Part shown: positions 1-22,535 of the stretch, one piece after another
Layout of the letters: each line of letters starts with the position of its first letter
Position numbering within the stretch: the first letter of the stretch is position 1
Source of the DNA: Thermaceae bacterium
Lineage (GTDB): Bacteria > Deinococcota > Deinococci > Deinococcales > Marinithermaceae
Direction of reading: 5' to 3'
Assembly: GCA_026984675.1 (NCBI GenBank)
Contig: JALSRQ010000146.1
Coordinates: 1 to 32,000 of the forward strand
DNA length: 32,000 bases
Translations under genes and position numbers: made by a program
The notes under the pieces: generated by a model
What the model was told of the DNA's origin: nothing
The model's database searches: none
Seen by the model: only the letters and a program-made list of their open reading frames with translations

Positions 1-486
1 TACCAGCACCAGAAGATCGGCCGGGGCGGCGCCAAGGTGGTCGCTAAGTTCAAGAACCTGGAGACCGGCGCCACCGTTGAACGCACCTTCAACTCGGGCG
101 AGAAGCTCGAGGACATCTTCGTCGAGACCCGTGAGATGCAGTACCTCTACCCCGAGGGCGACGCCTACGTCTTCATGGACCTGGAGACCTACGACCAGTA
201 CAGCGTCCCGCTGGCCGTGGTGGGGGAGGCGGCCAAGTTTCTTAAGGAGGGGACCCACGTCCTGGCCGACGTTTACGAGGGCCGCATCATCAAGGTCACT
301 CCGCCGACGGTGGTCGAGCTCAAGGTCACCGAGACCCCCCCGGGGGTCAAGGGCGACACCGTCTCCGGGGGCTCCAAGCCGGCGACCCTGGAGACCGGGG
401 CGGTGGTCCAGGTGCCCCTCTTCGTCAACGCCGGCGACGTAATCAAGATCGACACCCGGACCGGCGAGTACGTGGGCCGGGCCTAG
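1..486 (+). CDS. efp: Elongation factor P, 5'-truncated by the window edge
   Basis: Frame 1 is open from nt 1 (YQHQKIGRGGAKVVAKFKNLETG...TGEYVGRA*). EF-P-like over its full length, so the ORF-track ATG at 37 is internal. Stop is TAG at 484-486. Confidence 0.9.
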   Translation, partial: YQHQKIGRGGAKVVAKFKNLETGATVERTFNSGEKLEDIFVETREMQYLYPEGDAYVFMDLETYDQYSVPLAVVGEAAKFLKEGTHVLADVYEGRIIKVTPPTVVELKVTETPPGVKGDTVSGGSKPATLETGAVVQVPLFVNAGDVIKIDTRTGEYVGRA

Positions 487-495
487 GAGGCGGGG

Positions 496-983
496 ATGAA
501 GGTCAAGGAGATCCGCGCGCTGCTCGAGGCGATGGAGGCCACCGGGGCCAGCGAGGTCGTGCTCGAGACCCCCGACTTTAAGATCACCGTCCGCCGGGGG
601 AGCCCGGCCCCCGCCGGGGCCCCGGCGGCGACCGCGCCGGCCCCGACGCCCGCCGCCCCCCAACCCGAGCCGTCGCCGCCCCCGGTGCCAGAGCCCGAGG
701 CCGCCCCCGCCGAGGAGCCCCCGGCCTCCCAGGAGGAGTGCCCCAACTGCGTGGTGGTCAAGGCCCCGATCGTCGGCACCTTCTACCGGCGTCCCGCCCC
801 CGACGCCGAGCCCTACGTCAAGGAGGGCGACCGGGTGGAGAAGGGGCAGGTGCTCTGCATCATCGAGGCGATGAAGCTCTTCAACGAGATCGAGTCCGAG
901 GTCTCCGGCATCGTGCGCAAGATCCTGGTGGAGGACGCCGAGCCGGTGGAGTACGGCCAGCCCCTGTTCCTGATCGAGCCGGT

Positions 984-987
<4 letters not shown>
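496..987 (+). CDS. accB: Biotin carboxyl carrier protein of acetyl-CoA carboxylase
   Basis: GGAGG lies 6 nt upstream of the ATG. Pro/Ala-rich linker followed by a biotinyl domain with the EAMKL biotinylation motif. Stop overlaps the accC start (ATGA). Confidence 0.93.
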
Positions 988-2321
<1,334 letters not shown>

Positions 2322-2330
2322 ATACCCCAC
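2322..2330. repeat. Left copy of the 9-bp direct repeat ATACCCCAC, immediately after the accC stop codon
   Basis: Exact 9-mer repeated at 3316-3324. The two copies bracket the recombinase gene. Confidence 0.7.
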
Positions 2331-2336
2331 TTAACC

Positions 2337-2364
2337 TTGTCAAGCGCCACCGGACACCTAAGGT
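2337..2364 (+). promoter_or_regulatory. Putative promoter for a leaderless recombinase mRNA
   Basis: TTGTCA (2337-2342), 16-nt spacer, TAAGGT (2359-2364), 6 nt, then ATG at 2371. The same -10/N6-7/start geometry recurs at several host genes in this window. Confidence 0.35.
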
Positions 2365-2370
2365 GTAGGC

Positions 2371-3285
2371 ATGCCTACTTTTGCCGGTGTAGACGTATCA
2401 AAGAGCTTCCTCGACGTTTTTGACAGCACGGAGATCAAACGCTACACGAACGACCCAGAGGGATGGGCCGGCATTGCCGAGGAGACACGGGGGCCTTACG
2501 CGATCGAGGCTACCGGGATCTACCACATTCCCGTGGCGCGGTATTTGTGGCGAGAGGGCCGGACCGTCTACGTGGTCTCGCCCCTGCAGGTGAGGCGGTA
2601 TGCCCAGGCGCTCATGGCCCGCAACAAGACCGACAATCTGGACGCGCGGGTCATCGCGGCGTACGCGGAAGCAGCAGGAGACCGGCTCCGACCGTGGACA
2701 CCCTTAGACGCAGACCTGAGCGCGATTCGGGTGCTGGTGGGGTATGCGAGGGGAATCAGCCAGCAAAGCGCAGCCAACCGCAACCGGCTTCACACCGTTC
2801 GGTTCGCCTACCCCGAGCACGCTGGAAACATCGTGGAGACGGTGGCGGAGCTTAAGAAAACGGCGAGGCGGTTTTATCGAGAGGCGTTGAAGGTGGCGCA
2901 TGAAAACCCCACCATCGCCCACTGGATTGATCAGATGACCGAGGTGTCGGGGGTGGGGGAACGGGTAGCGCTCACGGTCATGGCGTACGGCGGCAACCTT
3001 GAGCGGTTCGACAATGCTCGGGCCTTCGCCGCCTACACCGGCCTGACGCCGATGCGAAAGCAGTCGGGGGAAAAGGAGGGAAAAGCGAGGATCTCGCGGA
3101 TGGGGCCGGGGGCGTTGAGGCAAGCGTTCTATATTGCCGCCAGGGTGGCAGTGATGAAGGATGAGCGCTATCGGGCGTACTACGAGCGAAAGCGAGCAGA
3201 AGGGAAGGCGCATCTGCTGGTGATGACCGCGATAGCCCGGAAGCTCGCGGTGGTGACATGGAAAAAGGCCGTGGGCCGGCCCTAG
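2371..3285 (+). CDS. IS110-family DEDD (RuvC-like) transposase/recombinase, 304 aa
   Basis: N-terminal DEDD signature (GVDVSK, AIEATG, KTDNLDA). C-terminal Tnp domain (GVGERVALTV..., YTGLTPMRKQSGEKEGKARISRMGPGALRQAFY). Lower GC than the host genes. Confidence 0.9.
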   Translation: MPTFAGVDVSKSFLDVFDSTEIKRYTNDPEGWAGIAEETRGPYAIEATGIYHIPVARYLWREGRTVYVVSPLQVRRYAQALMARNKTDNLDARVIAAYAEAAGDRLRPWTPLDADLSAIRVLVGYARGISQQSAANRNRLHTVRFAYPEHAGNIVETVAELKKTARRFYREALKVAHENPTIAHWIDQMTEVSGVGERVALTVMAYGGNLERFDNARAFAAYTGLTPMRKQSGEKEGKARISRMGPGALRQAFYIAARVAVMKDERYRAYYERKRAEGKAHLLVMTAIARKLAVVTWKKAVGRP

Positions 3286-3409
3286 CCACGCTTACCCACG
3301 GGCTCAGGGGCCCATATACCCCACCGGCAGGACCTGCGGCGCCAATCTAACCGACGAGCTCAAAGGCTCAGTATGGAGGACGGCGTCCTAGCCCACGGCC
3401 AAGAACAGG
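3286..3409. other. 124-nt non-coding spacer between the convergent recombinase and phage genes. Candidate att-like sequence or guide (bridge/seek) RNA locus.
   Basis: No credible ORF. Contains ATACCCCAC-CG-GCAGG (3316-3331), the palindrome GCAGGACCTGC (3327-3337) and the hairpin AGGAC-GGC-GTCCT (3377-3389). Confidence 0.3.
3316..3324. repeat. Right copy of the 9-bp direct repeat ATACCCCAC
   Basis: Exact match to 2322-2330. Confidence 0.7.
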
Positions 3410-3652
3410 CTACCACCGAGGGCGCTGGTAGGGACATCCAGCTTTTTCGCACCGCCTGCGTCCCTCGCGTAAAGCGGCAATCTCAAGGCCGGACAGCAAT
3501 TCGCCGCAAACAGGGCATCGGGTCCGGGTGTACGTAAAGCTCTTTCTCGAAATGTGTTTGGGATCCGTGCCGGTTAGGAAAGCCGTTCCCAACTTCCACA
3601 ACCACCAGAGCAAAGCGACCACCACCAGGACGGCCAAGAGATCGCCGATCAT
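3410..3652 (-). CDS. Small prophage membrane protein with a C-terminal Cys4 (zinc-ribbon-like) motif, 80 aa
   Basis: N-terminal TM helix (LLAVLVVVALLWWLW), then CPVCG...C-x5-GC. ATG lies 4 nt after the Zot stop. No clear SD. Confidence 0.5.
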   Translation of the reverse strand: MIGDLLAVLVVVALLWWLWKLGTAFLTGTDPKHISRKSFTYTRTRCPVCGELLSGLEIAALREGRRRCEKAGCPYQRPRW

Positions 3653-3656
3653 GCGA

Positions 3657-4529
3657 TTAGGCTATCGCAGGCTCGAGACGGGGGAGAGTCTCGGCGAACT
3701 TTCGACGCAGCAGCTCATGGGGAGGAACGCCTAGACGATATGCGTGGGCGAGCTCGGCTAGGGTGAGGGCAGGAAGGCCGTCGGCGGGGCCCGGGCCAGA
3801 CTTGCGCTGGGCAAGCTTTGACTCATCCCAGGTGAGCCCCAGCGCCTCAACCGCTGCCCGGCGCTTGGGATCGAGCTCCTTTTGCAGCTCGATGATCGGA
3901 GGCGGGAAGATCGCCCGGGTGTCGTAGCAGGAAGCCGCTAGGGGGTCGAGGACCACCACGTCGTTCCGGACGATGCCCTCGAAGATCGTGCTAGATCGCT
4001 TGTTCATCATGCCAAGCGAGTCGTCCATGATGTGGGTGTAGCGGATCACTGGGCGGCGCCAGCGGTGCTTGGGCCACAGAAGGAGCTTTAGCCAGATGGG
4101 CGCGGGCCGGGCCCACCAGACATGAGCCACCAGGTCGCGGATCATGGTGTCCACCGAGGCATACCGCTGGGTCGCGAGGAGTACATCCACCCCCACCTTG
4201 CGGTGCTGGGACCAGAAGCCCAGGACCTCGGTGGGAAAGAGGCGGTACTCCCGGGCGTTGAACCACATGTGGGCTTCGTCGAAAAGCAAAAGGCCTTCAT
4301 AAACACTCAGCAGACCTTTGTAGTCGCGGATCTCTTCGATGCTATCGGCACGGAGAACGGCCTCGCGATGGGGCATGCGATGACGACGGCGCAGGTAGTG
4401 GTAAACGTTTTCGCGAATAAAGCCGAAGTTGGCGTAAACCCGCTTACCCCTCGCGAGGGCTTGAAGCCCTCGATGAACGAGCATGTAGCTCTTACCCGAG
4501 CCCGGAACGCCCACGTAGGCTTCAATCAT
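3657..4529 (-). CDS. Zot/pI-like inovirus assembly P-loop ATPase, 290 aa
   Basis: Starts MIEAYVGVPGSGKSYMLV (Walker A) and has LLLFDEAHMWF (Walker B). ATG at 4529 lies 2 nt after the upstream gene's stop. The 151-aa upstream extension in the ORF track is rejected. Confidence 0.85.
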   Translation of the reverse strand: MIEAYVGVPGSGKSYMLVHRGLQALARGKRVYANFGFIRENVYHYLRRRHRMPHREAVLRADSIEEIRDYKGLLSVYEGLLLFDEAHMWFNAREYRLFPTEVLGFWSQHRKVGVDVLLATQRYASVDTMIRDLVAHVWWARPAPIWLKLLLWPKHRWRRPVIRYTHIMDDSLGMMNKRSSTIFEGIVRNDVVVLDPLAASCYDTRAIFPPPIIELQKELDPKRRAAVEALGLTWDESKLAQRKSGPGPADGLPALTLAELAHAYRLGVPPHELLRRKFAETLPRLEPAIA

Positions 4530-4531
4530 GG

Positions 4532-4936
4532 CTACCCACCGCCCCTCAGGAACTTGACGCCCTTGTAGAGGAAGATCGCGCCATAGACCGCCGCCCAGAC
4601 CGAAGCGGCGGTCAAAACCTCGGAGACCGGAAAGAAGACGTTCAACAGGCCCAGGTAGGTGCCGAGCGAATCGGTATACCACTGGGGCGGCTGGGGGACC
4701 TGGGGCAGCAGGTGGGCCAGGGTGGTGAGCAGGATGAAGAAAAGGTCCACGAGCAGGTTCAGGACCGCAACCAGGAGATCCAGGAACCAGCCCAGCACCG
4801 CCCCCACCAGGGAGCCCAGCGCTTGCCAGAGTGCACCGAAGAGACTCGCAAACCAGCCCAGGACATGCCCGGCGGCCTGGGCAATCAGGTCGGCGATCAT
4901 CTGCAAGAACGACGCGAGGGCACTCACCGGAACCAC
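4532..4936 (-). CDS. Polytopic hydrophobic prophage protein in the gVI position (minor coat/assembly)
   Basis: 134 aa, strongly hydrophobic, immediately upstream of and coupled to the Zot gene. GTG start at 4936 is uncertain (poor SD spacing; alternative ATG at 4900). Confidence 0.6.
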   Translation of the reverse strand: MVPVSALASFLQMIADLIAQAAGHVLGWFASLFGALWQALGSLVGAVLGWFLDLLVAVLNLLVDLFFILLTTLAHLLPQVPQPPQWYTDSLGTYLGLLNVFFPVSEVLTAASVWAAVYGAIFLYKGVKFLRGGG

Positions 4937-4980
4937 CTCCAGGCGGAGAAGGGGATGCTCCTTTCAAAGCCGCCGGGCGC

Positions 4981-5100
4981 AAGGGTGAACCCCTTCGGGA
5001 ACCATCCCCTTCGCGCGGCGCGGTACCGAAAAGCGGGAGTCCTCACCGAGTCCGGCCGTCCGACTCCAGACCTGCGCCGCGCTCCGGGGACGCTTCGCGC
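4981..5100. repeat. Repeat-rich phage intergenic region with nested inverted and short direct repeats
   Basis: Inverted repeat GCGCGGCGC (5013-5021) / GCGCCGCGC (5074-5082) encloses GGAGTC (5036-5041) / GACTCC (5062-5067). Direct repeats are CCCCTTCG (4990-4997, 5006-5013) and CTTCGCGC (5009-5016, 5093-5100). Confidence 0.6.
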
Positions 5101-5120
5101 CCTTGCGCCCGTCGGCCCAA

Positions 5121-5161
5121 GAGCAAGCAAGAGAATCGAGGGCTTTCCAGGGGAAAGCCCT
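5121..5161 (-). terminator. Intrinsic terminator after the pIII-like gene
   Basis: Perfect 10-bp stem AGGGCTTTCC/GGAAAGCCCT with a 3-nt loop (5139-5161). On the - strand it is followed by the U-rich CGAUUCUCUUGCUUGCUCUU. Confidence 0.65.
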
Positions 5162-5179
5162 TGTTCCAAGTTTCTCAAG

Positions 5180-6643
5180 CTAGGCATGGCTTGCCCTCCG
5201 GGCGACAGCGAAGAGGAAGCCAACCATGAGGGACGCCAGAACAATGCGGCGACCGGTCGACGCAGCCCACTGCATCACAGGGTTGTTACAAATGTCCACG
5301 TCGGCGGGGGGGAGGTCGGGGATTTGAAGCTGAACGTGCATGTCGCAGGCTCCGCCGCCGACCGAGGGCGGGGTAGGGATCCACCGGGCCATGCCGACCG
5401 GGAAGCGGTCTTGCAAAAGTTGCCAGAGATCGCTAAGGCGCTGTTGAAAGTTCTGGCGCAAAGGGTCAAAGCGCCCGGCCAGGTCGGGAAGGGTGGGGGC
5501 GTCGAAGGTCGGCAGATCGACCGGAGTCAGGGAGGGCATGCTGGGATCAGGTACCTGGTCAGGTTGCTGATCAGGCTGGCACTGGTTATTAGGGTCGTCC
5601 GGGCAAGGGTCCGCCGAGTCCTTGAGGCCGTCGCCGTCGGTGTCAGCGTCCTGGCTTACGTCCGGGCGGCTGCTGGGATCGGTGGGATCGGTCCCGGCGT
5701 CGCGTTCCGTACCGTTATCGTAGCCATCCCCATCGGGGTCGGCGGTCGGCAAGGGCTGGGACCCTGCGTTCGAGGGGTCCGAGCCGGTATCCCACTCGAA
5801 CCAGTCGGGCCAACCGTCCCCGTCGGAGTCCTCGGCAGGGTTAAAGAAGGGGTTGTCCCACCATTGGTTGCCGGTTGGGGGAGGATCAAGGGAAAGACCA
5901 GGAATAGGCACGCTGAAGGACTGGGGGATATTGCCCTTAGCGTCCTGATCGTTAAGGTAGTCGGTGACAGCCTGCTTAACCCCATCGGCAGCGTCGGGGT
6001 GAGACTGAATCCAGTCGGGGAGAGGAGGGCGGTTAACGCGGACATAGGCCGCGTCTACAGTCCAGGGGGTACCGCCTCCGGGGGGTATCACCTGGACAGG
6101 GCCGCCGAGCTGATCGCGGTCCACCCACTGGTAGTCGGTTAGCGTGCCTTCGCGGTTGAGAATCGCCTGCTCACCGACGGAGAGGGCAGGAGTAGGTGGG
6201 CAAGAGCCACCGCCTACTTCGCGAGGCTGGCAGTTAGGGCAGGTGTATCGCCAGTTGTATGCATGGAAATAGCTATCGCAGTACCCGCCGGTAATAACCC
6301 AAGCCCAATCGGAATAGGGACCACCGGCAAGGTTCCACCAGGTATCTAAGGACGTGCCGGTAGACTTCTTGGCTTGGTCGTAGAACCACTCTAGGCCGGT
6401 GTAGATCAGGGAGGCGGCGAACACGGCGACGCCGGCATAACGGACTACAGAGCCCCAAACCAGGCGCTTTTGGAACTGAGCGTCGGACCAAGCGATAACC
6501 TCGTCCAAAGTAAAGCCTTGGATAGCGGACTCGGCAGCGTTAAGGAAGCCAGGAGAAGAGGCAGGAACAGGGCGGTGAGCGTAGGTCGGGGAGAGCAAGG
6601 CCCCGGCCACCGCCAGGGCAACCAGCAGCCGGGGCACTCGCAT
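5180..6643 (-). CDS. pIII-like secreted, C-terminally anchored adsorption/minor coat protein with thrombospondin-type-3-like Asp-rich repeats
   Basis: Signal peptide MRVPRLLVALAVAGALLSPTYA and C-terminal TM anchor (IVLASLMVGFLFAVARRASHA). DxDGDG motifs (DSDGDGWPD, DPDGDGYDNG, DTDGDGLKD). Lies directly after the coat gene. Confidence 0.7.
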   Translation of the reverse strand: MRVPRLLVALAVAGALLSPTYAHRPVPASSPGFLNAAESAIQGFTLDEVIAWSDAQFQKRLVWGSVVRYAGVAVFAASLIYTGLEWFYDQAKKSTGTSLDTWWNLAGGPYSDWAWVITGGYCDSYFHAYNWRYTCPNCQPREVGGGSCPPTPALSVGEQAILNREGTLTDYQWVDRDQLGGPVQVIPPGGGTPWTVDAAYVRVNRPPLPDWIQSHPDAADGVKQAVTDYLNDQDAKGNIPQSFSVPIPGLSLDPPPTGNQWWDNPFFNPAEDSDGDGWPDWFEWDTGSDPSNAGSQPLPTADPDGDGYDNGTERDAGTDPTDPSSRPDVSQDADTDGDGLKDSADPCPDDPNNQCQPDQQPDQVPDPSMPSLTPVDLPTFDAPTLPDLAGRFDPLRQNFQQRLSDLWQLLQDRFPVGMARWIPTPPSVGGGACDMHVQLQIPDLPPADVDICNNPVMQWAASTGRRIVLASLMVGFLFAVARRASHA

Positions 6644-6647
6644 GGCC

Positions 6648-6872
6648 TTACCCCTTGAGGAAGCGCCGGGCGAACTTGAAAGCGGTCATGAGCCCGATGG
6701 AAAGGGCGAGGACGCCGACGCCGGCGGCGGCGATTGCGCTCAGGTTGGCGGTCACCTTCTGGGCGATGGGGGTGGGGTCGATGTCCGCCGAGGGAGCGGT
6801 TTGGGCGAACGAGAGCGCCCCCAGGAAAAGCGAGGTGCCAAGGACCGAGAGCTTCTTGAGAAACTTCTTCAT
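6648..6872 (-). CDS. Inovirus major coat protein precursor (pVIII-like), 74 aa
   Basis: AAGGAGG lies 8 nt upstream of the ATG at 6872. Signal peptide MKKFLKKLSVLGTSLFLGALSFA, then a 51-aa mature part: acidic N-terminus, AIAAAGVGVLALSIGL core, basic C-terminus KFARRFLKG. Closely resembles the PH75 coat protein as I recall it. Confidence 0.88.
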   Translation of the reverse strand: MKKFLKKLSVLGTSLFLGALSFAQTAPSADIDPTPIAQKVTANLSAIAAAGVGVLALSIGLMTAFKFARRFLKG

Positions 6873-6922
6873 GAGAATCAGCCTCCTTTCGTAGTTGCTC
6901 AACGCACGGCCCTGGACGCGCG

Positions 6923-7015
6923 TTAGAGCCGACGCAGAACGGCCCGGAGAGCACCGAGGATGACGCCCCCCGCAAGGCCCCAAAGGTAGGCTCCCCAAAT
7001 GGGTTGCCAGTCCAT
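6923..7015 (-). CDS. 30-aa hydrophobic micro-protein (gVII/gIX-like position)
   Basis: MDWQPIWGAYLWGLAGGVILGALRAVLRRL. AGGAG lies upstream. ATG overlaps the upstream stop (TGATG). Confidence 0.5.
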   Translation of the reverse strand: MDWQPIWGAYLWGLAGGVILGALRAVLRRL

Positions 7016-7122
7016 CACAGGCTCCTGAAGAGCACCCAGGCATAGCGGTAGGCGGCGAGGAACGCGTAGGGAACGCTGGCGATGGTGACCACCGAGAGCC
7101 AAGCGGTGCTGGGATCGAACAT
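7015..7122 (-). CDS. 35-aa hydrophobic micro-protein (gVII/gIX-like position), absent from the ORF track
   Basis: Hand translation gives MFDPSTAWLSVVTIASVPYAFLAAYRYAWVLFRSL. TGATG overlaps occur at both ends. Confidence 0.45.
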   Translation of the reverse strand: MFDPSTAWLSVVTIASVPYAFLAAYRYAWVLFRSL

Positions 7123-7226
7123 CACCAGTCCCCCACGGCCAGCACGCCGGTAAGCACGCCAAGGGCGAAGGCGAAGACCTTCAGGACCTCGACGACCTGA
7201 CCGACAGGAACCTGAGCCAGGCTCAC
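7122..7226 (-). CDS. 34-aa hydrophobic micro-protein, absent from the ORF track
   Basis: GTG start overlaps the stop of the upstream gene (GTGA). Translation is (M)SLAQVPVGQVVEVLKVFAFALGVLTGVLAVGDW. Confidence 0.35.
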   Translation of the reverse strand: MSLAQVPVGQVVEVLKVFAFALGVLTGVLAVGDW

Positions 7227-7492
7227 TTGGCCTTCACCTCCGCACGTTCGCGAACGTAGTGAACGGTACCGAGACGGGGGGTGTTCTCTCTGAGGTAGAC
7301 GCGGGCCCGGAAGGTGACGGGATCCATCGGCTTTAGCGCCATCACGTCAGGGACGCTCTCGGGGTCCAGGTTCAGGCGCAGGATGGGGCTTTCGTCGTCG
7401 ATGATCAGTTCAACGGTGTGGTAGACCTTGCCGTTATCGGCGGTGCGGGAGGTGTACCGTACAAAGTTCCCTTTTACGTAGACTCCGTTCAT
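7223..7492 (-). CDS. 89-aa protein in the gV position, putative ssDNA-binding protein
   Basis: GGAGG lies 9 nt upstream of the ATG at 7492. Size and position match inovirus gV. The beta-rich sequence (MNGVYVKGNFVRYTS...) is compatible with an OB fold. Function is assigned from synteny only. Confidence 0.5.
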   Translation of the reverse strand: MNGVYVKGNFVRYTSRTADNGKVYHTVELIIDDESPILRLNLDPESVPDVMALKPMDPVTFRARVYLRENTPRLGTVHYVRERAEVKAK

Positions 7493-7620
7493 TTTCCTAA
7501 CCTCCGTCCATAGTGCGGATCGCCTGTCAGCGCGGTGCCGATCACCACGCGCAAGGCCCAAAGAAAAGCGGTGCCGTTATCACAGAGGAGGCGCCAATAG
7601 CGGAGAAACCGCAGCATCAT
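7489..7620 (-). CDS. 43-aa ORF between the rep and gV-like genes
   Basis: ATG overlaps the rep stop and its TGA overlaps the next ATG (ATGA), which fits a translational-coupling chain. No recognisable motif. Confidence 0.3.
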   Translation of the reverse strand: MMLRFLRYWRLLCDNGTAFLWALRVVIGTALTGDPHYGRRLGK

Positions 7621-8993
7621 GCAGCCACCCCTTGGTAAAGCGCAAGGCGTTCCAGGTAGCGGTGCTCGAAGACGCCGCCGGCCAGGGCCTCGGGAAGTGC
7701 CCGGGGTGAGGTGCGGAATAGGCGGGCGAGAGTGCGCTCGAGGTACTTGCGGGCGTAGGCGACGCGTTCGAGCGCCACACCCTGCATTGCGGCAGCGGAG
7801 AGGATCACGCCCACGGCCTGAGCCAGGAGGCCCTCGGTAGCAGCGCGGAGGGGCCGACGGGCACGCTTGAGGGGAACCCGGACCTGGGCCCAGGCCAGAA
7901 TGACCTCCGTCCAAAGCGGATCTTCCGGCCAGCGGGTCTTCTGCTGGTTCGCGCTCGGAACCCGCAGGCTGAGCCAGTGCGTGGTCAGGTAGTACCAGAG
8001 GGCGCCAAGGTTCTCGACCAAGGTGGGCCACTCATGGAAGTCGAGAAGGCCCTTCTCGGGGTGCAAGAAGGCAGTGAGCACGTCCTTGCGAAGCTGGAAC
8101 TCGACGCGCCAGACCACCGTGTTCTCAAGGTCGAGGCCGAAGCTCGCCGCGTAGTCGCGGAGAAGCTCCTTCGCCTCGGGCTTCTTACGGGCCTCGGCGG
8201 TCTTGCTGTAGATCCGGGCCAGGAGCTTCTTGCTCCCGAACCGGAACGAGGTCCAGCGCGGGCCGCTAAGGTGCACCTGGGCCTCGGCGAGGGCAGAGGG
8301 CGCGGCAAGAAGCGCCAGGCCCTCACCCGTGCACTTAGCGGCCCCCGTGCTACTCATGGGGGGGCCGCCCGCGCCCGGGGCGGCGCTCCCGCGCTCGCCG
8401 CCGGGCGCTTCGGCGGCATCCTCCAAGTAGGCTTGGCGATCGCGGGCACGGGAAACGAAGCGGTAAAGGTCCGGGAGCTCGAAGGGGTGATCCGGTGAGG
8501 CGAAGTCGGCGTAAAGATCCACACGTGAAACGCCGATACGTACAGGGTCGGGATCTTGCAGCCCAGCCCGTGCCATAAGCGCAATCAGCCGGGCAGTGAT
8601 CGCATCGACGATCTCGCGGATATTCCCGCCAAGAGCGCGGATGTAGCGCCCGTGGAGCTCGACACGGACCTGGGCATAGTCGTCCCGCTTTACGGCTGGC
8701 TTCTCTGGGTCTGAGATGCCCAGGAAAAGGGCCTCGTCCCCGAAGACGAGGCCGTAACGGTAATGCCGGACGCGGCGAATCTGGGCCCGCTCAAAGTCGC
8801 GGGGCTCAAGGGTGGCCGGAATGCCAAGGTCAGAGACGTCCACAAAGACCGGGCGGTCGAGATCGGTCTCGTTGCGTTTGACAAGCCCGGCTTCCAGGCG
8901 CTGGTGAAGGTCAGAAGGGAGACTGTAGCGCGGACCCCAGGAGTACCAGAGGACCAACGTGTCCACGCCGTGGGCAAGCGGGGTTGCATTCAT
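7617..8993 (-). CDS. Rolling-circle replication initiator, Rep_trans (RstA/pT181 RepC-like) family, 458 aa
   Basis: The LLARIYSKTAEARKK segment resembles the conserved RxYDK catalytic-Tyr motif of Rep_trans proteins. N-terminal GVDTLVLWYSW resembles the family's DWL motif. First gene of the phage block. No SD, and only about 9 nt from the island edge. Confidence 0.7.
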   Translation of the reverse strand: MNATPLAHGVDTLVLWYSWGPRYSLPSDLHQRLEAGLVKRNETDLDRPVFVDVSDLGIPATLEPRDFERAQIRRVRHYRYGLVFGDEALFLGISDPEKPAVKRDDYAQVRVELHGRYIRALGGNIREIVDAITARLIALMARAGLQDPDPVRIGVSRVDLYADFASPDHPFELPDLYRFVSRARDRQAYLEDAAEAPGGERGSAAPGAGGPPMSSTGAAKCTGEGLALLAAPSALAEAQVHLSGPRWTSFRFGSKKLLARIYSKTAEARKKPEAKELLRDYAASFGLDLENTVVWRVEFQLRKDVLTAFLHPEKGLLDFHEWPTLVENLGALWYYLTTHWLSLRVPSANQQKTRWPEDPLWTEVILAWAQVRVPLKRARRPLRAATEGLLAQAVGVILSAAAMQGVALERVAYARKYLERTLARLFRTSPRALPEALAGGVFEHRYLERLALYQGVAA

Positions 8994-9012
8994 TTGGGTG
9001 CAGGGTAAGGAT
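8984..9012 (+). promoter_or_regulatory. Possible junction-spanning promoter for leaderless asp23-nusB-folD
   Basis: TTGCAT (8984-8989, inside phage DNA over rep codons 2-3), 17 nt, AAGGAT (9007-9012, host side), 7 nt, then ATG at 9020. Confidence 0.25.
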
Positions 9013-9019
9013 GGGGGCG

Positions 9020-9328
9020 ATGGCCGACTACGAGCTTTCCGAGGCCGCCCTGGCGCAGCTGGTGGGGTTTGCCCTGGACGCGGTGGACGGCGTCCGGTTG
9101 GCCTCCGGCAAGGGGCTCGGCGGGCGCCGCCGCCCGGTCCGGCTGGGGCGGGAGGAGGGCGGCATCACCGTCGAGCTGGGGCTGGTCGCCGCCTACGGCC
9201 GGTCTCTCCCCGAGCTCGGCCGCGAGGTCCAGCGGGCGGTGGCCGAGGGCCTCAAGGCCACCGCCGGGGTGAGCGTCCGTCGGGTCGACGTGGTGTTCCT
9301 CGAGGTGGAGCCCGATGAAACGGCGTAG
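9020..9328 (+). CDS. Asp23/Gls24-family (alkaline shock) protein
   Basis: MADYELSEAALAQLVGFALDAVDGV... is a typical Asp23 N-terminus. The ORF-track start at 8984 would overlap the rep start and island edge and is rejected. Overlaps nusB by 14 nt. Confidence 0.8.
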   Translation: MADYELSEAALAQLVGFALDAVDGVRLASGKGLGGRRRPVRLGREEGGITVELGLVAAYGRSLPELGREVQRAVAEGLKATAGVSVRRVDVVFLEVEPDETA

Positions 9329-9749
9329 GGCCCGCGAGCTCGCCTTCAAGGTCCTCTTCGAGCACCTGGTGGGCGGGGTCCCCCTGGAGGAGGCCTGGCG
9401 GCACGCGCTGGAGCTGGAGGAGCCGTCCCCCGACCCCGCCACCCGGGCCTTCGCCGAGCGGTTGGTCGAGGGCTTCCTCCGCCACCGGGAGACGGTCGAC
9501 CGGGTGCTGGCCGAGACCATCGAGGGCTGGAGCTTCTCCCAGATGAACCAGACCGACCTGGTCCTCCTGCGCCTGGCCACCTTCGAGGCCCTCTTCGAGG
9601 ACACCCCCTTCCCGCCGCTGATCGAGGTGGCGGTGAGGATCGCCAAGCGCTACGGCGGCGAGGACTCCGGGCGGTTCGTCAACGGGGTGCTGGCCCGGCT
9701 GATCCAGCGGGTCGAGGCCGGGGAGCTCAAGGCCGTCCCCAAGAGCTAG
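9315..9749 (+). CDS. nusB: Transcription antitermination factor NusB
   Basis: RRARELAFKVLFE N-terminus and KRYGGEDSGRFVNGVLARL C-terminal motif. Conserved asp23-nusB-folD context. Confidence 0.9.
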   Translation: MKRRRARELAFKVLFEHLVGGVPLEEAWRHALELEEPSPDPATRAFAERLVEGFLRHRETVDRVLAETIEGWSFSQMNQTDLVLLRLATFEALFEDTPFPPLIEVAVRIAKRYGGEDSGRFVNGVLARLIQRVEAGELKAVPKS

Positions 9750-9751
9750 CC

Positions 9752-10591
9752 ATGGCCGAGCTCCTCTACGGCGCACCGGTGGCCGAGGCGGTCTACGCCG
9801 AGCTGGCCGATCGCCTGGCCGGGCTGCCCTACACCCCGAGCCTCCACGTGATCCGGGTGGGGGAGGACCCGGCCTCGCTGGCCTACGTGCGCTTGAAGGC
9901 CCGGCGGGCCCGCCGGTTGGGGCTAAGGAGCACCGTCCACGCCCTTCCCGAGACCGCCGAGGAGGCCGAGCTGCTGGGCCTGATCGAGGCCCTGAACGCC
10001 GACCCCGAGGTCGACGGGATCTTGGTCCAGCTCCCCCTGCCCGCCCACATCGCCACCGCCCACGTCCTCGAGGCCATCGCCCCGGAGAAGGACGTCGACG
10101 GCTTCCACCCCCTGAACGTGGGGCGGCTCTGGTCGCGGGGGCCGGGGGTCGGGCTCGACCCCTGCACCCCCGCCGGGATCATGCGCCTCTTGGCCCACTA
10201 CCGGGTGCCGGTCGCCGGGCGCCGGGCGGTGGTGGTGGGGCGGAGCAACATCGTCGGCAAGCCGATGGCGGCGATGCTGCTGGCCGCCGACGCCACCGTC
10301 GCCGTGGCCCACTCCCGGACCCGCGACCTGGCCGCCCTCACCCGCGAGGCCGAGCTCCTGGTGAGCGCGGTGGGGCGGCCCGGCTACCTGAGGCCGGCGA
10401 TGGTCCGACCGGGGGCGGTGGTCGTCGACGTGGGGATCACCCGGGTGGGGGAGCGGCTTTTGGGCGACGCCGACCCCGGGGTGGCCGAGGTCGCCTCCCG
10501 GCTGACCCCGGTGCCCGGCGGGGTGGGGCCGATGACGGTGGCGATGCTGCTTTGGAACACGGTGCGGGCGGCCGAGCGGAGGCGGGGATGA
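9752..10591 (+). CDS. folD: Bifunctional methylenetetrahydrofolate dehydrogenase/cyclohydrolase
   Basis: Motifs VGEDPASLAYVRLK, GILVQLPLP, VVVGRSNIVGKPMA and TPVPGGVGPMTVAML. Confidence 0.95.
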   Translation: MAELLYGAPVAEAVYAELADRLAGLPYTPSLHVIRVGEDPASLAYVRLKARRARRLGLRSTVHALPETAEEAELLGLIEALNADPEVDGILVQLPLPAHIATAHVLEAIAPEKDVDGFHPLNVGRLWSRGPGVGLDPCTPAGIMRLLAHYRVPVAGRRAVVVGRSNIVGKPMAAMLLAADATVAVAHSRTRDLAALTREAELLVSAVGRPGYLRPAMVRPGAVVVDVGITRVGERLLGDADPGVAEVASRLTPVPGGVGPMTVAMLLWNTVRAAERRRG

Positions 10592-17852: not shown

Positions 17853-17940
17853 GCCGGGATGGCGGAATCGGTAGACGCGGCAGACTCAAAATCTGCTGGG
17901 CGGATAGCCCGTGCGGGTTCGAGTCCCGCTCCCGGCACCA
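17853..17940 (+). tRNA. tRNA-Leu (anticodon CAA), type II with long variable arm, CCA encoded
   Basis: Acceptor GCCGGGA/TCCCGGC. Anticodon stem GCAGA/TCTGC with loop CTCAAAA. T arm GCGGG-TTCGAGT-CCCGC. 3' ACCA. Confidence 0.92.
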
Positions 17941-18230: not shown

Positions 18231-18325
18231 TTGACAGGGTGGGGGGCCCCCGGTAGCGTAGGACCAAGGCCCAAGCCGGCGGTCTTTGCCCAGGCCTTGG
18301 GTTTGGATTAAGGGAGGTGGGTCCT

Positions 18326-20083
18326 ATGAAAAAAGCGATCATCGGCACGTTGGCGCTCACCCTGGCCCTGGCCTCGGCGGCCCTGGCCCAGGCCTTTACC
18401 TGGCCGGCGAGCTGGACCACCGCCAAGCCGGGGGAGGCCAAGCGCGGGGGCACCTTCGTCGAGGCCACCATCTCCGACTTCCGCACCATGAACCCCTTCC
18501 TTTCGGCCGAGGCCGATAGCATCCCCGACCGCATGACCCTGAACGGCATCGGGCTCGTGACCCGCGACCCCACCACCGGCAAGTGGATCCCCTACATGGC
18601 CACCTCCTGGAAGGTGAGCAAGGACCAGACCGAGATCACCTTCAAGATCCGGCGGGGCATGAAGTGGTCGGACGGGAAGCCGATCACCGCCGACGACTGG
18701 ATCATGACCTACCGCATCCACATGGACCCCAAGGTGGGCTCCAACCTCCGCGACTCCTTCTTCATCGGCGACAAGGTGGTGAAGGTCGAGAAGATCGACG
18801 ACTACACCCTTCGCTTCGTCTACCCCAAGCCCGACGCCGAGGCCTTCGCGATCGCCAGCTACTCCCCCTGGCCGGCCCACGTCTTCGGTCCGGTCTACGA
18901 AAAGCAGGGGGCCGACGGTATCAAGAAGATGTGGGGCCTGAACGAGGATCCAGGGAAAATCGTGACCTGGGGGCCCTTCGTGGTTGCTTCCTACCGCCCG
19001 GGCGAGCGGGTGGTCTTTAAGCGGAACCCCTACTTCGGCGAGTGGAACAAGGACGCCGCCGGCAACCCGCTGCCCTACCTCGACGCCTACCAGGTCAACA
19101 TCGTCAAGGACACCAACGCCGAGCTCGCCGCCTTCCTCACCGGCGAGATCGACCAGATGAACCCGACCACGGTGGAGCAGATCGCCCAGATCAAGAAGGC
19201 GATCAACGCCGGCAAGCTGGACGCTACCCTCAAGGTCAACGCCTCGCCGATCGCTTCCAGCCAGTTCGTGGTCTTCAACTGGAACAAGAAGTCCGATCCC
19301 TTCAAGGAACGGCTCTTCCGCTCGGCCAAGTTCCGAAAGGCGATGAGCCACCTCATCAACCGCAAGGCGGTGGTCGAGGTGGTCTACGGGGGCTTGGGCA
19401 CCCCGATGTACGGTTCGGTCTACCCGGTGCTCACCCAGTGGATCAACAAGGATGCCCCCAAGTATCCCTACGACCCCGAGGCGGCGAAAAAGCTCCTGGC
19501 CGAGCTGGGCTTTACCAAGAAGGACGCCGAGGGGTACCTGGTCGACGAACAGGGCCGGCGGCTTGAGTTCAACCTGGCGACCAACGCCGGCAACAAGCAG
19601 CGGGAGGAGATCGCCAAGCTCTTCGTCGACGAGGCCAAGAAGGTCGGGGTGAAGATCAACTTCCGGCCGATCGACTTCAACACCCTGGTGGGGCAGCTCC
19701 TCTCCAAGGGGCCGGACCGCCCCTTCGACGCGATCATCATCGGCCTCAGAGGGGGCGGGCTCGACTGGCCGTTCGGGTCCAACGTGGTGCCCTGCCGCGG
19801 CAACCTCCACATGTGGAACCGCTCCGGTACCTGCCTCGACCCCCGCGAGACCCTGATGCAGTACTACTACTACAAGGGCCGCACCACCCTCGACTTCGAC
19901 CAGCGGGTGAAGATCGGCTACAAGCTGCAGGAGGTCGAGGGCGAGCTCCTGCCCATCGTTTACATCGCCGGGCCCAACTACCACACCGCCTGGAACAACC
20001 GCATCGGCGGCTGGCACCCGGACAAGATCATCTCCTCGATCTGGCGCTCCGGCGAGCTTCCGCTCCTTTACCGGGCGAAGTAG
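18326..20083 (+). CDS. Peptide/nickel ABC transporter substrate-binding protein (family 5, Opp/Dpp-type)
   Basis: GGGAGG lies 9 nt upstream. Signal peptide MKKAIIGTLALTLALASAALAQA. SBP_bac_5-like length and motifs. Followed by cognate permeases. Confidence 0.9.
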   Translation: MKKAIIGTLALTLALASAALAQAFTWPASWTTAKPGEAKRGGTFVEATISDFRTMNPFLSAEADSIPDRMTLNGIGLVTRDPTTGKWIPYMATSWKVSKDQTEITFKIRRGMKWSDGKPITADDWIMTYRIHMDPKVGSNLRDSFFIGDKVVKVEKIDDYTLRFVYPKPDAEAFAIASYSPWPAHVFGPVYEKQGADGIKKMWGLNEDPGKIVTWGPFVVASYRPGERVVFKRNPYFGEWNKDAAGNPLPYLDAYQVNIVKDTNAELAAFLTGEIDQMNPTTVEQIAQIKKAINAGKLDATLKVNASPIASSQFVVFNWNKKSDPFKERLFRSAKFRKAMSHLINRKAVVEVVYGGLGTPMYGSVYPVLTQWINKDAPKYPYDPEAAKKLLAELGFTKKDAEGYLVDEQGRRLEFNLATNAGNKQREEIAKLFVDEAKKVGVKINFRPIDFNTLVGQLLSKGPDRPFDAIIIGLRGGGLDWPFGSNVVPCRGNLHMWNRSGTCLDPRETLMQYYYYKGRTTLDFDQRVKIGYKLQEVEGELLPIVYIAGPNYHTAWNNRIGGWHPDKIISSIWRSGELPLLYRAK

Positions 20084-20097
20084 ACTGGTCCGGCAGG

Positions 20098-20130
20098 CCC
20101 TCCCCGGGGGCCTCCCCGGGGAGGGTTTTT
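20098..20130 (+). terminator. Strong hairpin plus T5 between the SBP and permease genes (terminator or attenuator)
   Basis: CCCTCCCCGGGG-GCCT-CCCCGGGGAGGG perfect 12-bp stem followed by TTTTT. Confidence 0.75.
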
Positions 20131-20141
20131 CGGAGGTCGCC

Positions 20142-21125
20142 TTGGGCGCTTACCTGGTCCGCCGCCTTATCCACCTGATCCCCACCTTCCTGGGCGCCAC
20201 CTTCCTGGCCTTCCTCATCCTCCAGCTCGCCCCCGGCGACTTCCTCACCCGCTGGGCGCTGGACCCCAAGATCCGCCCCGAGACGATCGCCCTGATGCGC
20301 CACAACTTCGGGCTCGACCGCCCGGTCCTGGTGCAGTACCTGATCTGGCTGAAAAACCTTCTTCACGGCGACCTCGGCCACTCGTTCATGTACCAGCAGC
20401 CGGTGCTCGAGGTCATCTGGCCGCGAATCCTGAACTCCCTGATCCTGGTCGGCCTCTCGATCGTCTTCCTCTACCTGATCGGCATCCCGGTCGGGGTCTA
20501 CCAGGCCCTCCGCCCCTACACCCCCGGCGATTACGCGATCAGCTTCCTGGCCTACTTCGGGATCGCGATCCCCAACTTCTTCTTCATGCTGATCCTGATC
20601 TACCTCCTGGTCCAGTTCAAGTTCGCCCACGGCTGGACCCCCTTCCCGATCGGGGGGATGACCAGTCAGGGCTTCGATCACCTGCCCCCCTGGCGCCAGC
20701 TCCTCGACGTGTTGTGGCACGCGGTGCTTCCCGCCTTCGTGGTGGTCACCGCCGACATGTCGAGCCTGACCCGGGTGATGCGGGGGCTGGTGATGGAGGT
20801 GCTGGGGCAGGACTACATCCGCACCGCCCGGGCCAAGGGGCTGCCCCAGCGGGTGGTGCTCTACAAGCACGCGCTCAGGAACGCGATCATCCCGGTGATC
20901 GCCACCATCGGCGGGCTCCTTCCCACCCTGATCAGCGGGGCGGGCCTGGTGGAGGTGGTCGCCAACTGGCCGGGGATGACCCCGCTTTTGCTCGACGCGA
21001 TTAACCAGCAGGACCTCTACGTCAACACCGGGATCATCGCCCTCTCGACCTTCCTCCTCATCGTCGGCAACATCCTCGGGGACCTTTTGCTCGCGGTGGT
21101 GGACCCGCGGATTCGGTACGGGTGA
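20142..21125 (+). CDS. Peptide ABC transporter permease (OppB/DppB-type)
   Basis: TTG start 6 nt after GGAGG. BPD_transp_1 features (DYIRTARAKGL, ALRNAIIPVI). Confidence 0.88.
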   Translation: MGAYLVRRLIHLIPTFLGATFLAFLILQLAPGDFLTRWALDPKIRPETIALMRHNFGLDRPVLVQYLIWLKNLLHGDLGHSFMYQQPVLEVIWPRILNSLILVGLSIVFLYLIGIPVGVYQALRPYTPGDYAISFLAYFGIAIPNFFFMLILIYLLVQFKFAHGWTPFPIGGMTSQGFDHLPPWRQLLDVLWHAVLPAFVVVTADMSSLTRVMRGLVMEVLGQDYIRTARAKGLPQRVVLYKHALRNAIIPVIATIGGLLPTLISGAGLVEVVANWPGMTPLLLDAINQQDLYVNTGIIALSTFLLIVGNILGDLLLAVVDPRIRYG

Positions 21126-21128
21126 GCG

Positions 21129-22535
21129 ATGGGCGAATACCGGACCAAGAGCCACTGGCAGCTGGTTTGGCAGCAGTTCAAGCGCCACCGTCTGGCCCTC
21201 CTCGGCGGGGGAATCCTGCTTTTGCTCTACACCCTGGCCGCCTTCGCCGGGTTCTTTAGCCCTTACGACCCGAACTTCTACACCCTCTCCCCGGTCTACC
21301 GCTACGCCCCGCCCACCCCGATCCACTTCCGCGACCCCGCCACCGGTCGGCTCACCCGCCCCTTCGTCTACGGTCTCAAGAAGACCCTCGACCTCAACAC
21401 CTTCGTCGAGAAGTACACCGAGGACAGGACGCGGCGCTACCCGATCCGCTTTTTCGTCCGGACCCCCGACCACCCCTACACGATCTTCAAGGTCTTCAGG
21501 TCCGACCTCCGGCTCTTCGGCCTGGGCGAGAAGGCCACCGCCGAGGGGGCCCGGCTCTACCTGCTCGGCTCCGACAACTTCGGCCGCGACCTCTGGAGCC
21601 GCATGGTCTACGGCGCCCAGGTCTCGCTCACCATCGGCATCCTGGCGGTGCTGGTGGCGCTGATCCTGGGCCTTCTCCTGGGCGGCCTCTCGGGGTTTTA
21701 CCAGGGGACCCGCATCCGCCTCTCGCTCCCCCTCTTTGCGCGGGCCACCTGGCGCTACCTGAAGGCCGGGGAGGCGAGGGGGCCGGGCCGGGTCCTCAGG
21801 GTCTTCGGGAGGGGGATCCTTTTGGTTTTGAGCCTGGTCTTCTGGCTCGGCCTCGCGGCCGGCCTCCTTTACGGCCTGGTGGTGCTCACGGGCTACAGCG
21901 GGGCGGGCGAGCGGGTGATCGAGGCCCTCCTGATGGTGCCGGCGGCCCTTTGGCTGCTTAGCCGGGGCCTTCTCGTTCCCTTTACCTTCGACCCCGACGA
22001 CCTGGTGATGCGGCTGGTGGAGATCCTGGCGGCGATCCCCGGGCTCTTCCTCCTGGTCACGCTGCGGAGCGTCTTCCCCAGCGACATCGACCCCCTGATG
22101 ACCTTCTACATCGTGGTGGCGATCCTCTCGCTGATCGGCTGGGGCGGGCTGGCCCGCACCGTGCGGGGGATGGTGCTCTCGCTGCGGGAGATGGACTACG
22201 TCACCGCCGCCAAGGCCCTGGGGGTTCCCGAGTTCCTGCTGATCCTCCGCCACATCCTCCCGGCCACCGCCAGCTACACCATCGTCTACGCCTCGCTGGC
22301 CATCCCCGGGTTCATCCTGGCGGAGTCCGGGCTCTCGTTCATCGGCTTCGGGATCACCGAGCCCTACACCAGCTGGGGCCTCCTTTTAAAGGCGGCCCAG
22401 GACGGCGGCTTCGCCTCCTTCGCCGACCGCCCCTGGGTGCTGGCGCCGGGCTTCGCGATCTTCCTGGCGGTCTTGACCTGGAACTTCGTCGGCGACGGGC
22501 TGCGCGACGCCTTCGACCCGCGGAGGCGGCGGTAG
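21129..22535 (+). CDS. Peptide ABC transporter permease (OppC/DppC-type) carrying an approximately 96-aa internal insertion
   Basis: GSDNFGRDLWSRMVYG, MRLVEILAAIPGLFLLV, DYVTAAKALG and FVGDGLRDAFDP motifs. 468 aa against about 300 for typical DppC. Confidence 0.88.
   Translation: MGEYRTKSHWQLVWQQFKRHRLALLGGGILLLLYTLAAFAGFFSPYDPNFYTLSPVYRYAPPTPIHFRDPATGRLTRPFVYGLKKTLDLNTFVEKYTEDRTRRYPIRFFVRTPDHPYTIFKVFRSDLRLFGLGEKATAEGARLYLLGSDNFGRDLWSRMVYGAQVSLTIGILAVLVALILGLLLGGLSGFYQGTRIRLSLPLFARATWRYLKAGEARGPGRVLRVFGRGILLVLSLVFWLGLAAGLLYGLVVLTGYSGAGERVIEALLMVPAALWLLSRGLLVPFTFDPDDLVMRLVEILAAIPGLFLLVTLRSVFPSDIDPLMTFYIVVAILSLIGWGGLARTVRGMVLSLREMDYVTAAKALGVPEFLLILRHILPATASYTIVYASLAIPGFILAESGLSFIGFGITEPYTSWGLLLKAAQDGGFASFADRPWVLAPGFAIFLAVLTWNFVGDGLRDAFDPRRRR

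Follow-up and report, generated by a model that had tools for sequence, protein, structure and literature searches.

The window studied here is a stretch of 32,000 nucleotides (nt) from a Thermaceae bacterium (GenBank assembly GCA_026984675.1, contig JALSRQ010000146.1, positions 1 to 32,000), in which the host genes accB and accC (accC at 984-2321, plus strand) are followed by a filamentous phage (inovirus) integrated as a prophage at 2322-9007. This block of 6,686 bp carries a full inovirus gene set, and beyond it the host sequence continues with a gene of the Asp23 family (9020-9328) and, further on, nusB and folD. All genes between 3410 and 8993 lie on the minus strand. Convergent with the morphogenesis genes among them, at the left edge of the phage, stands a plus-strand gene for a recombinase of the IS110 family of insertion sequences (ISs), and next to its 3' end we found a structured RNA whose internal loops match both ends of the phage and the host sequences on either side of it. 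Judging from these sequences, we consider it highly probable that the recombinase and the adjacent guide RNA are the phage's own system for integration and excision.

Results

The recombinase gene (2371-3285, plus strand) encodes a DEDD enzyme of 304 amino acids, identified by family matches and catalytic residues. Its product matches PF01548 (DEDD_Tnp_IS110, E = 3.7e-20) and PF02371 (Transposase_20, E = 9e-23) in Pfam, NF033542 'IS110 family RNA-guided transposase' in NCBIfam (188 bits, cutoff 140) and PHROG 2199 'transposase'. When aligned to the solved IS621 and ISCro4 recombinases (E about 1e-35), it has all of the residues D8, E46, D88, D91 and S232, the last of which aligns with the SG motif of both enzymes; catalysis by this recombinase is what we infer. 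Residues 126-280 also give a sub-threshold match to NF052498 'TIGR-Tas system RNA-guided endonuclease' (E 7e-8, 32.6 bits, cutoff 100). An earlier note on this DNA had described a 304-residue IS110-type DEDD enzyme of phage-like composition at the phage edge, convergent with the morphogenesis genes, in a prophage that has no tyrosine or serine integrase. The Pfam and NCBIfam matches and the gene map agree with this description, as does the G+C content, which is 0.60-0.65 over 2300-9000 and about 0.70 in the flanks; no integrase match was found with Pfam or PHROG in the nine prophage open reading frames (ORFs) scanned, a set that includes only some of the small ORFs lying between coat gene and gV. 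The range that had been given for the module, 2331-3409, was near, but its exact limits differ, the module starting at the phage end (2322) and reaching about 3396-3405. The gene may have a promoter of its own, the candidate being TTGTCA (2337-2342), a 16-nt spacer and TAAGGT (2359-2364), which ends 6 nt before the ATG and would therefore give a leaderless mRNA.

Sequence conservation in all loci takes in the 15 nt ahead of the recombinase stop codon and about 110 nt beyond it, and in places exceeds that of the coding sequence. RNAalifold alone, without prior input, predicts for this region an outer stem and two hairpins, a fold in which 91.7% of cells are paired and 9 pairs have changed on both sides; none of 500 shuffles was as good, and slid controls reached 30-52% pairing. 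In the window this bridge-type guide RNA of ~126 nt occupies 3271-3396, with the minus strand favoured, its outer stem being formed by 3271-3276 and 3391-3396 and each of the hairpins containing a large internal loop.

The loops hold four stretches that correspond to the junctions of the prophage. On the donor side, the short guide (3291-3297, CTTACCC on the plus strand) is the reverse complement of GGGTA+AG, that is, of the gII-proximal phage end and a core dinucleotide (7/7 against 9003-9009), and is kept in nearly all loci, and the long guide (3314-3324, ATATACCCCAC on the plus strand) corresponds to the core and the recombinase-proximal end, AG+ATACCCCAC = AGATACCCCAC, at 10 of the 11 positions of 2320-2330. 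On the target side, the short guide (3347-3353, CTAACCG on the plus strand) is a near reverse complement of the host sequence CGGGT+AG (6/7; 7/7 in locus L009, at the same site), and the long guide (3370-3379, AGTATGGAGG on the plus strand) is close to the core and right host flank, AG+GATGGGGG = AGGATGGGGG, at 9008-9017 (8/10). The target loop thus matches the host flanks CGGGT-AG-GATGG, and the donor loop the phage ends GGGTA-AG-ATACCCCAC. Because the stretch matched by the long target guide lies 6.7 kb from the other junction, the whole phage was the unit that integrated.

The 9-bp direct repeat to which the earlier note had drawn attention is real. Its copies of ATACCCCAC lie at 2322-2330 and 3316-3324, 994 bp apart, the second within the long donor guide. 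About two 9-mer repeats are expected by chance in any 1.1 kb (our own estimate), so that the repeat alone is no more than chance and takes its meaning from the covariation of guide and phage end. By that covariation, it is a donor guide and the phage end that the guide recognises, not a target duplication.

The recombinase-proximal end of the phage (2322-2370) comprises the donor half-site ATACCCCAC (2322-2330) and a conserved box, CTTGTCAAG (2336-2344), whose minus strand contains TTGACA (2343->2338); the gII-proximal end (8994-9007) carries the donor half-site GGGTA (9003-9007). Homology among elements at different sites begins at 2317-2322 and ends at 9007-9015, opening at an invariant TAGATACCCCAC and closing after CATTTG...AGGGTAAG, and at the right it stops at the gII-proximal end in the comparisons with L011, L014 and L201. 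An empty site was found in L198, a contig with an identical AccC protein, where the sequence reads GAGCGGGT-AG-GATGGGGGCGATG, with the right half GATGGGGGCG. In the window, attL is GAGCGGGT-AG-ATACCCCAC and attR is GCAGGGTA-AG-GATGGGGGCG. The left host half-site GAGCGGGT (2312-2319, plus strand) is the 3' end of accC, and the core copy of attL (2320-2321) completes the accC stop codon TAG; the core copy of attR (9008-9009) is followed by the right host half-site GATGGGGGCG (9010-9019, plus strand) and directly thereafter by the ATG of the Asp23-family gene at 9020. Both host halves are identical in L198. Comparison of the empty site with attL and attR therefore points to a scarless exchange at a core of 2 bp (plus-strand AG, phage-sense CT), with no further duplication at the insertion and the stop codon of accC unchanged. 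A TA core with right flanks starting in AG had also been considered, and was rejected because L198 gives an AG core.

It follows that attB is the accC/Asp23 intergenic sequence CGGGTAGGATGG (in longer form GAGCGGGTAGGATGGGGGCG), and that attP would read ...TTGGGTGCAGGGTA-AG-ATACCCCACTTAACC..., with GGGTAAGATACCCCAC and GGTGCAGGGTAAGATACCCCACTTAACC as the predicted junction strings of a circle of 6,688 bp, one core being added to 2322-9007. The earlier note had seen no dif-like AT-rich site at the prophage edges. With this attB, and with other unique sites in its relatives, the phage differs from XerCD/dif phages of the CTXphi type, which integrate at chromosomal dif via a dif-like attP. A repeat scan and inspection by eye gave no terminal inverted repeats and no long (11-13-bp) subterminal inverted repeats of the IS1111 type, and the sole inverted-repeat pair of the left end joins 2336-2355 to 8866-8885 (80%), 125 nt inside gII. 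Among the Logan contigs of run SRR7968113, L010 corresponds to window 2292-3903, its start lying 29 nt short of the left core's end, and L008 starts at 9008, exactly at the right core. Assuming assembly with k=31, these starts fall where filled and empty alleles would branch, which hints that both alleles are present in the sample.

The correspondence between guides and sites is kept when the sites change. Across 13 loci, the four variable bases of the short target guide agree with the reverse complement of the left flank of the same locus at 43 of 52 positions. Permutations gave 19 on average, and none of 200,000 reached 43. The match is complete in eight loci, whose guides comprise seven different sequences. 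For the long target guide, where four independent sites have a right flank, the cognate pairing was the best of all 24 permutations, with 8 of 8 flank positions matched in L014 and 7 of 8 in L201. The donor side changes in the same manner, since in L197, whose recombinase is 55% identical, the phage end and the long donor guide both read ACATACCA. Close relatives thus have different target guides and lie at different chromosomal sites, which indicates that target choice has been re-programmed in nature. The short target guide of L202 (8600-9770) is GCAA, the same as that of L194, and its own left flank is TGAAT-AG; this misfit may come from insertion at an off-target site, from rearrangement afterwards or from chimerism of the contig.

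From these observations we propose the following course of integration. In the circular phage the prophage ends would be joined as ...GCAGGGTA-AG-ATACCCCAC..., and this junction would be the donor site attP, in the short divergent space between the starts of gII and of the recombinase gene. One internal loop of the RNA would pair with both halves of attP, and the other with a host sequence of the form NNNNT-AG-N8. In the window this host sequence is CGGGT-AG-GATGGGGG, at the point where 10 nt separate accC from the Asp23-family gene. Strand exchange by the recombinase at the 2-bp core would then insert the phage without scar or duplication, preserving the stop codon of accC. The placement of the recombinase gene in the circle agrees with that given in the earlier note, as it falls between the end of the Zot/orf80 operon and gII, in antisense.

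If the recombinase belongs to the phage, it should be found in the same place in related phages. Homologues of at least 55% identity form eight protein clusters, and coupling was assessed wherever the contig was long enough (that of L197 does not reach far enough for Zot to be seen). Nine other elements, L006, L011, L012, L014, L017, L194, L195/196, L201 and L009, keep the recombinase at the prophage edge, convergent with the gene for the Zot-like assembly protein. Their recombinases are roughly 57-93% identical to that of the window, apart from that of L009, which is identical. They occupy different host sites, L014 being in Oceanithermus and L009 at the window's own site, and those with recombinases ~88-93% identical to that of the window are distributed over six or more different sites. 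No solo copy of the recombinase was seen among the homologues. The search for further copies that the earlier note had proposed gave the same edge and orientation in every relative with enough sequence. Together with guides that span the whole prophage, this conserved position bears out the idea that the recombinase is an integral phage module, very probably the integrase.

Two relatives need separate comment. L005 had been taken for a possible solo IS copy, a reading that we rejected, as its homology to the window ends at a second element starting TGTGCAG, after which the 2-kb contig ends. This second element (1883-2027) encodes the 3' end of a minus-strand gene ending ...WLHYYNWHRPHSSLG, a DDE-type transposase by eye. 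It is inserted in the outer stem of the guide RNA, at the equivalent of window 3392/3393, and would probably disable the RNA. L009 (7154-10580, corresponding to window 1-3420) is a metagenome contig of another strain with a prophage at the same accC site. It shows no differences from the window over 2193-3331, that is, the phage end and the whole recombinase gene, and differs at 11 of about 2,190 positions of the host flank. The differences begin at 3332, inside the RNA, with both target guides included, and the phage body is only 76% identical. Two readings fit this pattern: the recombinase module was exchanged between phages, or the assembly is chimeric.

With a covariance model of the RNA, homologues of full length were detected directly 5' of the transposase gene in three isolated Thermus phages, phiOH16 (L001, 27-157; 47.9 bits), Zuza8 (30.9 bits) and Zuza27 (32.5 bits), those of the two Zuza phages lying at L002 6633-6757 and L003 6536-6663. 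In all three phages the site matched by the donor guides stands between transposase gene and gII, beside a TTGACA box. In phiOH3 (L004, 44-90), which has no transposase, only the target-loop half of the RNA is kept. From the RNA of phiOH16, the predicted host target is about CCAGTATA-CT-TTCCC on the phage-sense strand. Since the RNA matches on the strand opposite to the genes of the phiOH16-type records, the two lineages share the orientation of RNA and attP relative to the phage body and differ by an inversion of the recombinase gene. Scans for the RNA motif TACCCCACCGGCA-N(10-20)-CCAA in metagenomes and IMG/VR returned chance matches only, none of them encoding a relative of the recombinase.

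Which strand is transcribed bears on how the system should be classified. We think that the RNA is probably made from the phage-sense strand, the minus strand of the window. Read in this direction, the order of the loops (variable target, then conserved donor), the guide lengths, the strand pairing and the CT core all equal those of IS621, and the phiOH16-type phages show the canonical IS110 layout of RNA followed by recombinase gene. The phage-sense strand also folds better in phiOH16, Zuza8 and Zuza27 (-49.7, -47.5 and -53.1 kcal/mol, against -30.4, -40.2 and -35.2 kcal/mol for the opposite strand, a gain of 7-19), and the minus strand has the lower folding energy in 9 of 10 window-lineage sequences, in which the energies of the consensus structure are almost equal on both strands. 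A less likely but serious possibility is that the plus strand is transcribed, the RNA forming the 3' tail of the recombinase mRNA, and that the phage uses an integration system of the IS1111/seekRNA type. The RNA does begin directly downstream of the recombinase gene, overlapping it by 15 nt, and co-transcription would allow its expression in the prophage state. In the plus-strand order the guide complementary to the top strand precedes that complementary to the bottom strand, as Siddiquee et al. report for IS1111-type seekRNAs, and 8 of 10 sequences retain a G.U pair (3339.3386) that the opposite strand would turn into an A.C mismatch. However, in phiOH16, Zuza8 and Zuza27 a plus-strand reading would make the RNA antisense to and divergent from the recombinase gene, ~24 nt apart, and this adds to the folding energies, the IS621-like geometry and the lack of long subterminal inverted repeats noted above. 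A scan of 2250-3700 found no plus-strand terminator after the RNA.

The joined phage ends may in addition hold a promoter. In the phage sense, they read TTGACA-18 nt-TACCCT-8 nt-ATG, the ATG being that of gII, with the -35 candidate in the recombinase-proximal end (2343->2338) and the -10 candidate in the gII-proximal end (9007->9002). This arrangement is kept in the window, L011, L014 and L201, and is similar in phiOH16 and Zuza8. The gII promoter therefore appears to be split by integration and intact only in the circle, an organisation known from IS110 circles, which rebuild a promoter across the junction of right and left ends (PMC11208160). Integration would take the -35 box from gII, helping to silence the prophage. 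With a minus-strand RNA, the layout would be that of a canonical IS110 element (junction promoter, left end, bridge RNA), with the phage operon between promoter and RNA.

We could go further and regard the whole filamentous phage as a giant IS110-type element, a proposal for which we judge the chances to be about even. The junction promoter would then drive gII, the operon and the terminal bridge RNA, lysogeny would need no repressor, and site choice would be RNA-guided and re-programmable. The inverted recombinase gene, with its own promoter, would uncouple enzyme supply from phage state.

The remaining genes are those of a filamentous phage of the phiOH16/Zuza kind (Thomixvirus-like), as indicated by nucleotide and protein similarity to the Thermus phages phiOH3, phiOH16, Zuza8 and Zuza27. 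All are on the minus strand. Nearest to the RNA, between it and the Zot gene, is orf80 (3410-3652), encoding a small protein with a predicted membrane helix (N-terminal, hydrophobic) and CxxC...C motifs. It has no family match in Pfam, PHROG or NCBIfam scans and no annotated counterpart in phiOH16-type phages, and a gene of 82-95 amino acids is called at its position in L011, L017 and L197. The Zot/pI-like assembly ATPase (3657-4529; PF05707, phrog_20922) is 65% identical to the product of phiOH16 gene IV. It is followed by a gVI-like ORF (4532-4936), a gIII-like adsorption protein (5180-6643, phrog_36046) and the major coat protein, Coat_B (6648-6872). A gV-like single-stranded DNA-binding protein (7223-7492) is assigned by position and size only, having no family match and no blastp match to gV of phiOH16 or Zuza8. 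The gII-like replication endonuclease (7617-8993, phrog_33635) completes the set. The Zot, Coat_B, gIII-like and gII-like genes stand in the order of phiOH3/phiOH16. Compared with phiOH16 and Zuza8, identities are 65% for Zot, 35-38% for gIII and 32-35% for gII. In phiOH16, Zuza8 and Zuza27 a transposase of the IS110 family, 38-40% identical to the recombinase of the window, lies between the Zot-like gene and gII. The 38% identity to that of phiOH16 is on par with gII and gIII, which fits long co-inheritance.

Elsewhere in the window, a tRNA-Leu (CAA) at 17853-17940 precedes a stretch of lower G+C content (18300-22500, 0.62-0.67) with a strongly negative GC skew, which opens with a peptide-binding protein gene (SBP_bac_5), judging from comparison with L007. 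Nothing ties this stretch to the phage.

Discussion

Several observations weigh against the account given above or parts of it. The target guides of the window fit their own site imperfectly (short guide 6/7, long guide 8/10), and the right-flank data come from only four independent sites. In L202 the guide matches the flank at one of four variable positions, and in L005 at two of four. The circular attP junction was recovered from no collection searched (IMG/VR, metagenome scans): scans of IMG/VR with the recombinase and gII returned nothing, and a scan for the end motif gave one chance match inside a coding region. An Rfam scan of 1500-10000 at E<=1 matched no real family. The consensus scan of 2250-3700 gave no promoter above threshold, the promoters proposed here being consensus readings. 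Finally, the plus strand is favoured by the conserved G.U pair and by the location of the RNA, which lies 3' of the recombinase gene.

The imperfect guides and the lack of a circular form in the databases searched would be expected if the prophage were a fixed, decaying remnant, with an inactive recombinase and RNA that match a historical footprint. We consider this unlikely, given that the ORFs of the phage are all intact, as is the recombinase, which retains its catalytic residues, that a genome with an identical AccC protein has the site empty and that recombinases ~88-93% identical are found at six or more different sites. The starts of the SRR7968113 contigs at 2292 and 9008 also fit the branching of filled and empty alleles, an inference that assumes k=31.

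The competing explanation raised in the earlier note, an unrelated IS110-type IS of ~1 kb that landed in or beside the prophage, with the ATACCCCAC repeat as its ends and the phage integrated by other means, is very improbable, and we reject it. It could draw on the 9-bp repeat that brackets the gene, on the frequency of IS110 elements as stand-alone ISs, on the statement of Roux et al. 2019 that selfish and virus-domesticated transposases are indistinguishable by protein sequence alone, and on L009, in which an identical recombinase segment within a phage body of 76% identity implies that the module can move between phage backgrounds. Yet the second copy of the repeat lies inside a conserved structured RNA, where it covaries with the phage end and not with any host target, and a 9-mer repeat is in any case expected by chance at this distance. 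No right end follows the RNA: the sole plus-strand GGGTAAG of the window is at 9003-9009, 5.6 kb beyond, the other four copies being on the minus strand. The guide-matched unit of 6,686 bp is not a compact IS of ~1.2-1.6 kb, its target guides correspond to the sequences flanking these 6.7 kb, and the covariation of guides and flanks and the empty site contradict a secondary insertion. Nor does such an insertion explain the same position and orientation in nine other elements, with recombinases ranging from identical down to about 57%, or the lack of solo copies among homologues of at least 55% identity.

An integrated phage with its own RNA-guided recombinase would have several consequences. 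The guide RNA separates selfish from domesticated transposases in a way that protein sequence does not, because it specifies both where the mobile unit ends and what it targets, and here that unit would be the entire virus. It would offer a concrete mechanism for the integration of inoviruses that have no integrase, including the Thermus phages, and one that may extend to the Nf/MDA phages of Neisseria. The attB of each phage should be predictable from its own sequence, and a re-programmable guide would explain why near-identical phages lie at different unique sites. The split promoter suggests that prophages could be silenced without a repressor. The system also points to compact bridge recombinases of thermophiles that naturally carry multi-kilobase cargo; if correct, the one described here (304 amino acids, an RNA of ~126 nt) would be naturally thermostable and move a cargo of 5.6 kb.

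One of the closest known systems is IS621, of the IS110 group, for which a bridge RNA mechanism and a junction promoter were described by Durrant et al. 2024 (PMC11208160; structures 8WT6, 9T56). The recombinase of the window shares with that group a RuvC-like DEDD domain and a Tnp domain with a catalytic serine. The RNA has two loops in both systems, target and donor, each pairing with both strands including a 2-bp core, and in both insertion is scarless and a promoter is apparently rebuilt across the joined ends. The mobile unit of the window differs in being 6.7 kb, with a complete phage between junction promoter and RNA, instead of an IS of 1.2-1.6 kb, and its recombinase gene is inverted relative to the RNA, provided that the RNA is phage-sense. 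The RNA of ~126 nt, closed by an outer stem, is shorter than the 177 nt of IS621, and the host is a thermophile.

Elements of the IS1111 group, whose seekRNA was described by Siddiquee et al. 2024 (PMC11187229), have their non-coding RNA region downstream of the recombinase gene, as in the window. They have subterminal inverted repeats of 11-13 bp, of which none were found here. In the window, unlike in these elements, the phiOH16-type homologues and the folding energies indicate the opposite strand for the RNA, and a phage is carried as cargo.

The Nf/MDA phages of Neisseria (Kawai et al. 2005; PMC7058167) are likewise inoviruses without a tyrosine or serine integrase, and carry a Piv/IS110-type recombinase beside a Zot-like gene at the prophage end. 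They insert at a site with a conserved CT, and the transposase gene occurs in either orientation among their members. The comparison with these phages made in the earlier note agrees with the literature (PMC11437467, PMC7058167). They belong to a different phage family and host phylum, and target the abundant repeat dRS3, whereas the lineage of the window uses unique sites that differ between close relatives. In L200 (OR148970.1, 1703-2901), one of the oral Neisseria-type inoviruses, a recombinase 31% identical to that of the window lies between Zot and the replication gene, along the phage genes. It is followed by a non-coding stretch of 249 nt, a candidate site for a guide RNA, which was not matched by the covariance model built here. 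The literature searched, subscription journals excluded, describes no guide RNA for Nf phages and no bridge RNAs tied to filamentous phages.

Nearest by descent are phiOH16, Zuza8 and Zuza27 (Thomixvirus, Paulinoviridae), which have the same gene order as the phage of the window from gII to the Zot-like gene. In Thermus proviruses the genes for endonuclease and recombinase stand at opposite ends, as in the window, and phiOH16-type phages have the homologous structured RNA and the TTGACA box beside attP. The recombinase gene runs along the phage genes in the phiOH16 lineage and antisense to them in the window, so that RNA and recombinase gene are in tandem in the former and convergent in the latter. 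The phage of the window has orf80 as an extra small ORF, and its kind is found in uncultured Thermaceae, including Oceanithermus, instead of Thermus. IS110 transposases in phiOH16, Zuza8, Zuza27 and Thermus proviruses, and the analogy with Nf phages, were published in 2024 (PMC11437467), and the statement of the earlier note that such a module had not been described for thermophile inoviruses does not stand. In that study transposase-mediated integration was inferred by analogy only, and RNA, attachment sites and core were not described. What is already known is therefore that IS110 transposases occur in Nf phages and Thermus inoviruses, and that IS110/IS1111 elements use bridge RNAs or seekRNAs. 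What the sequences compared here add is a guide RNA whose donor and target guides span an entire virus, with defined attP, attB and core, together with natural re-targeting among close relatives, an inverted recombinase gene and, probably, a promoter that is split by integration.

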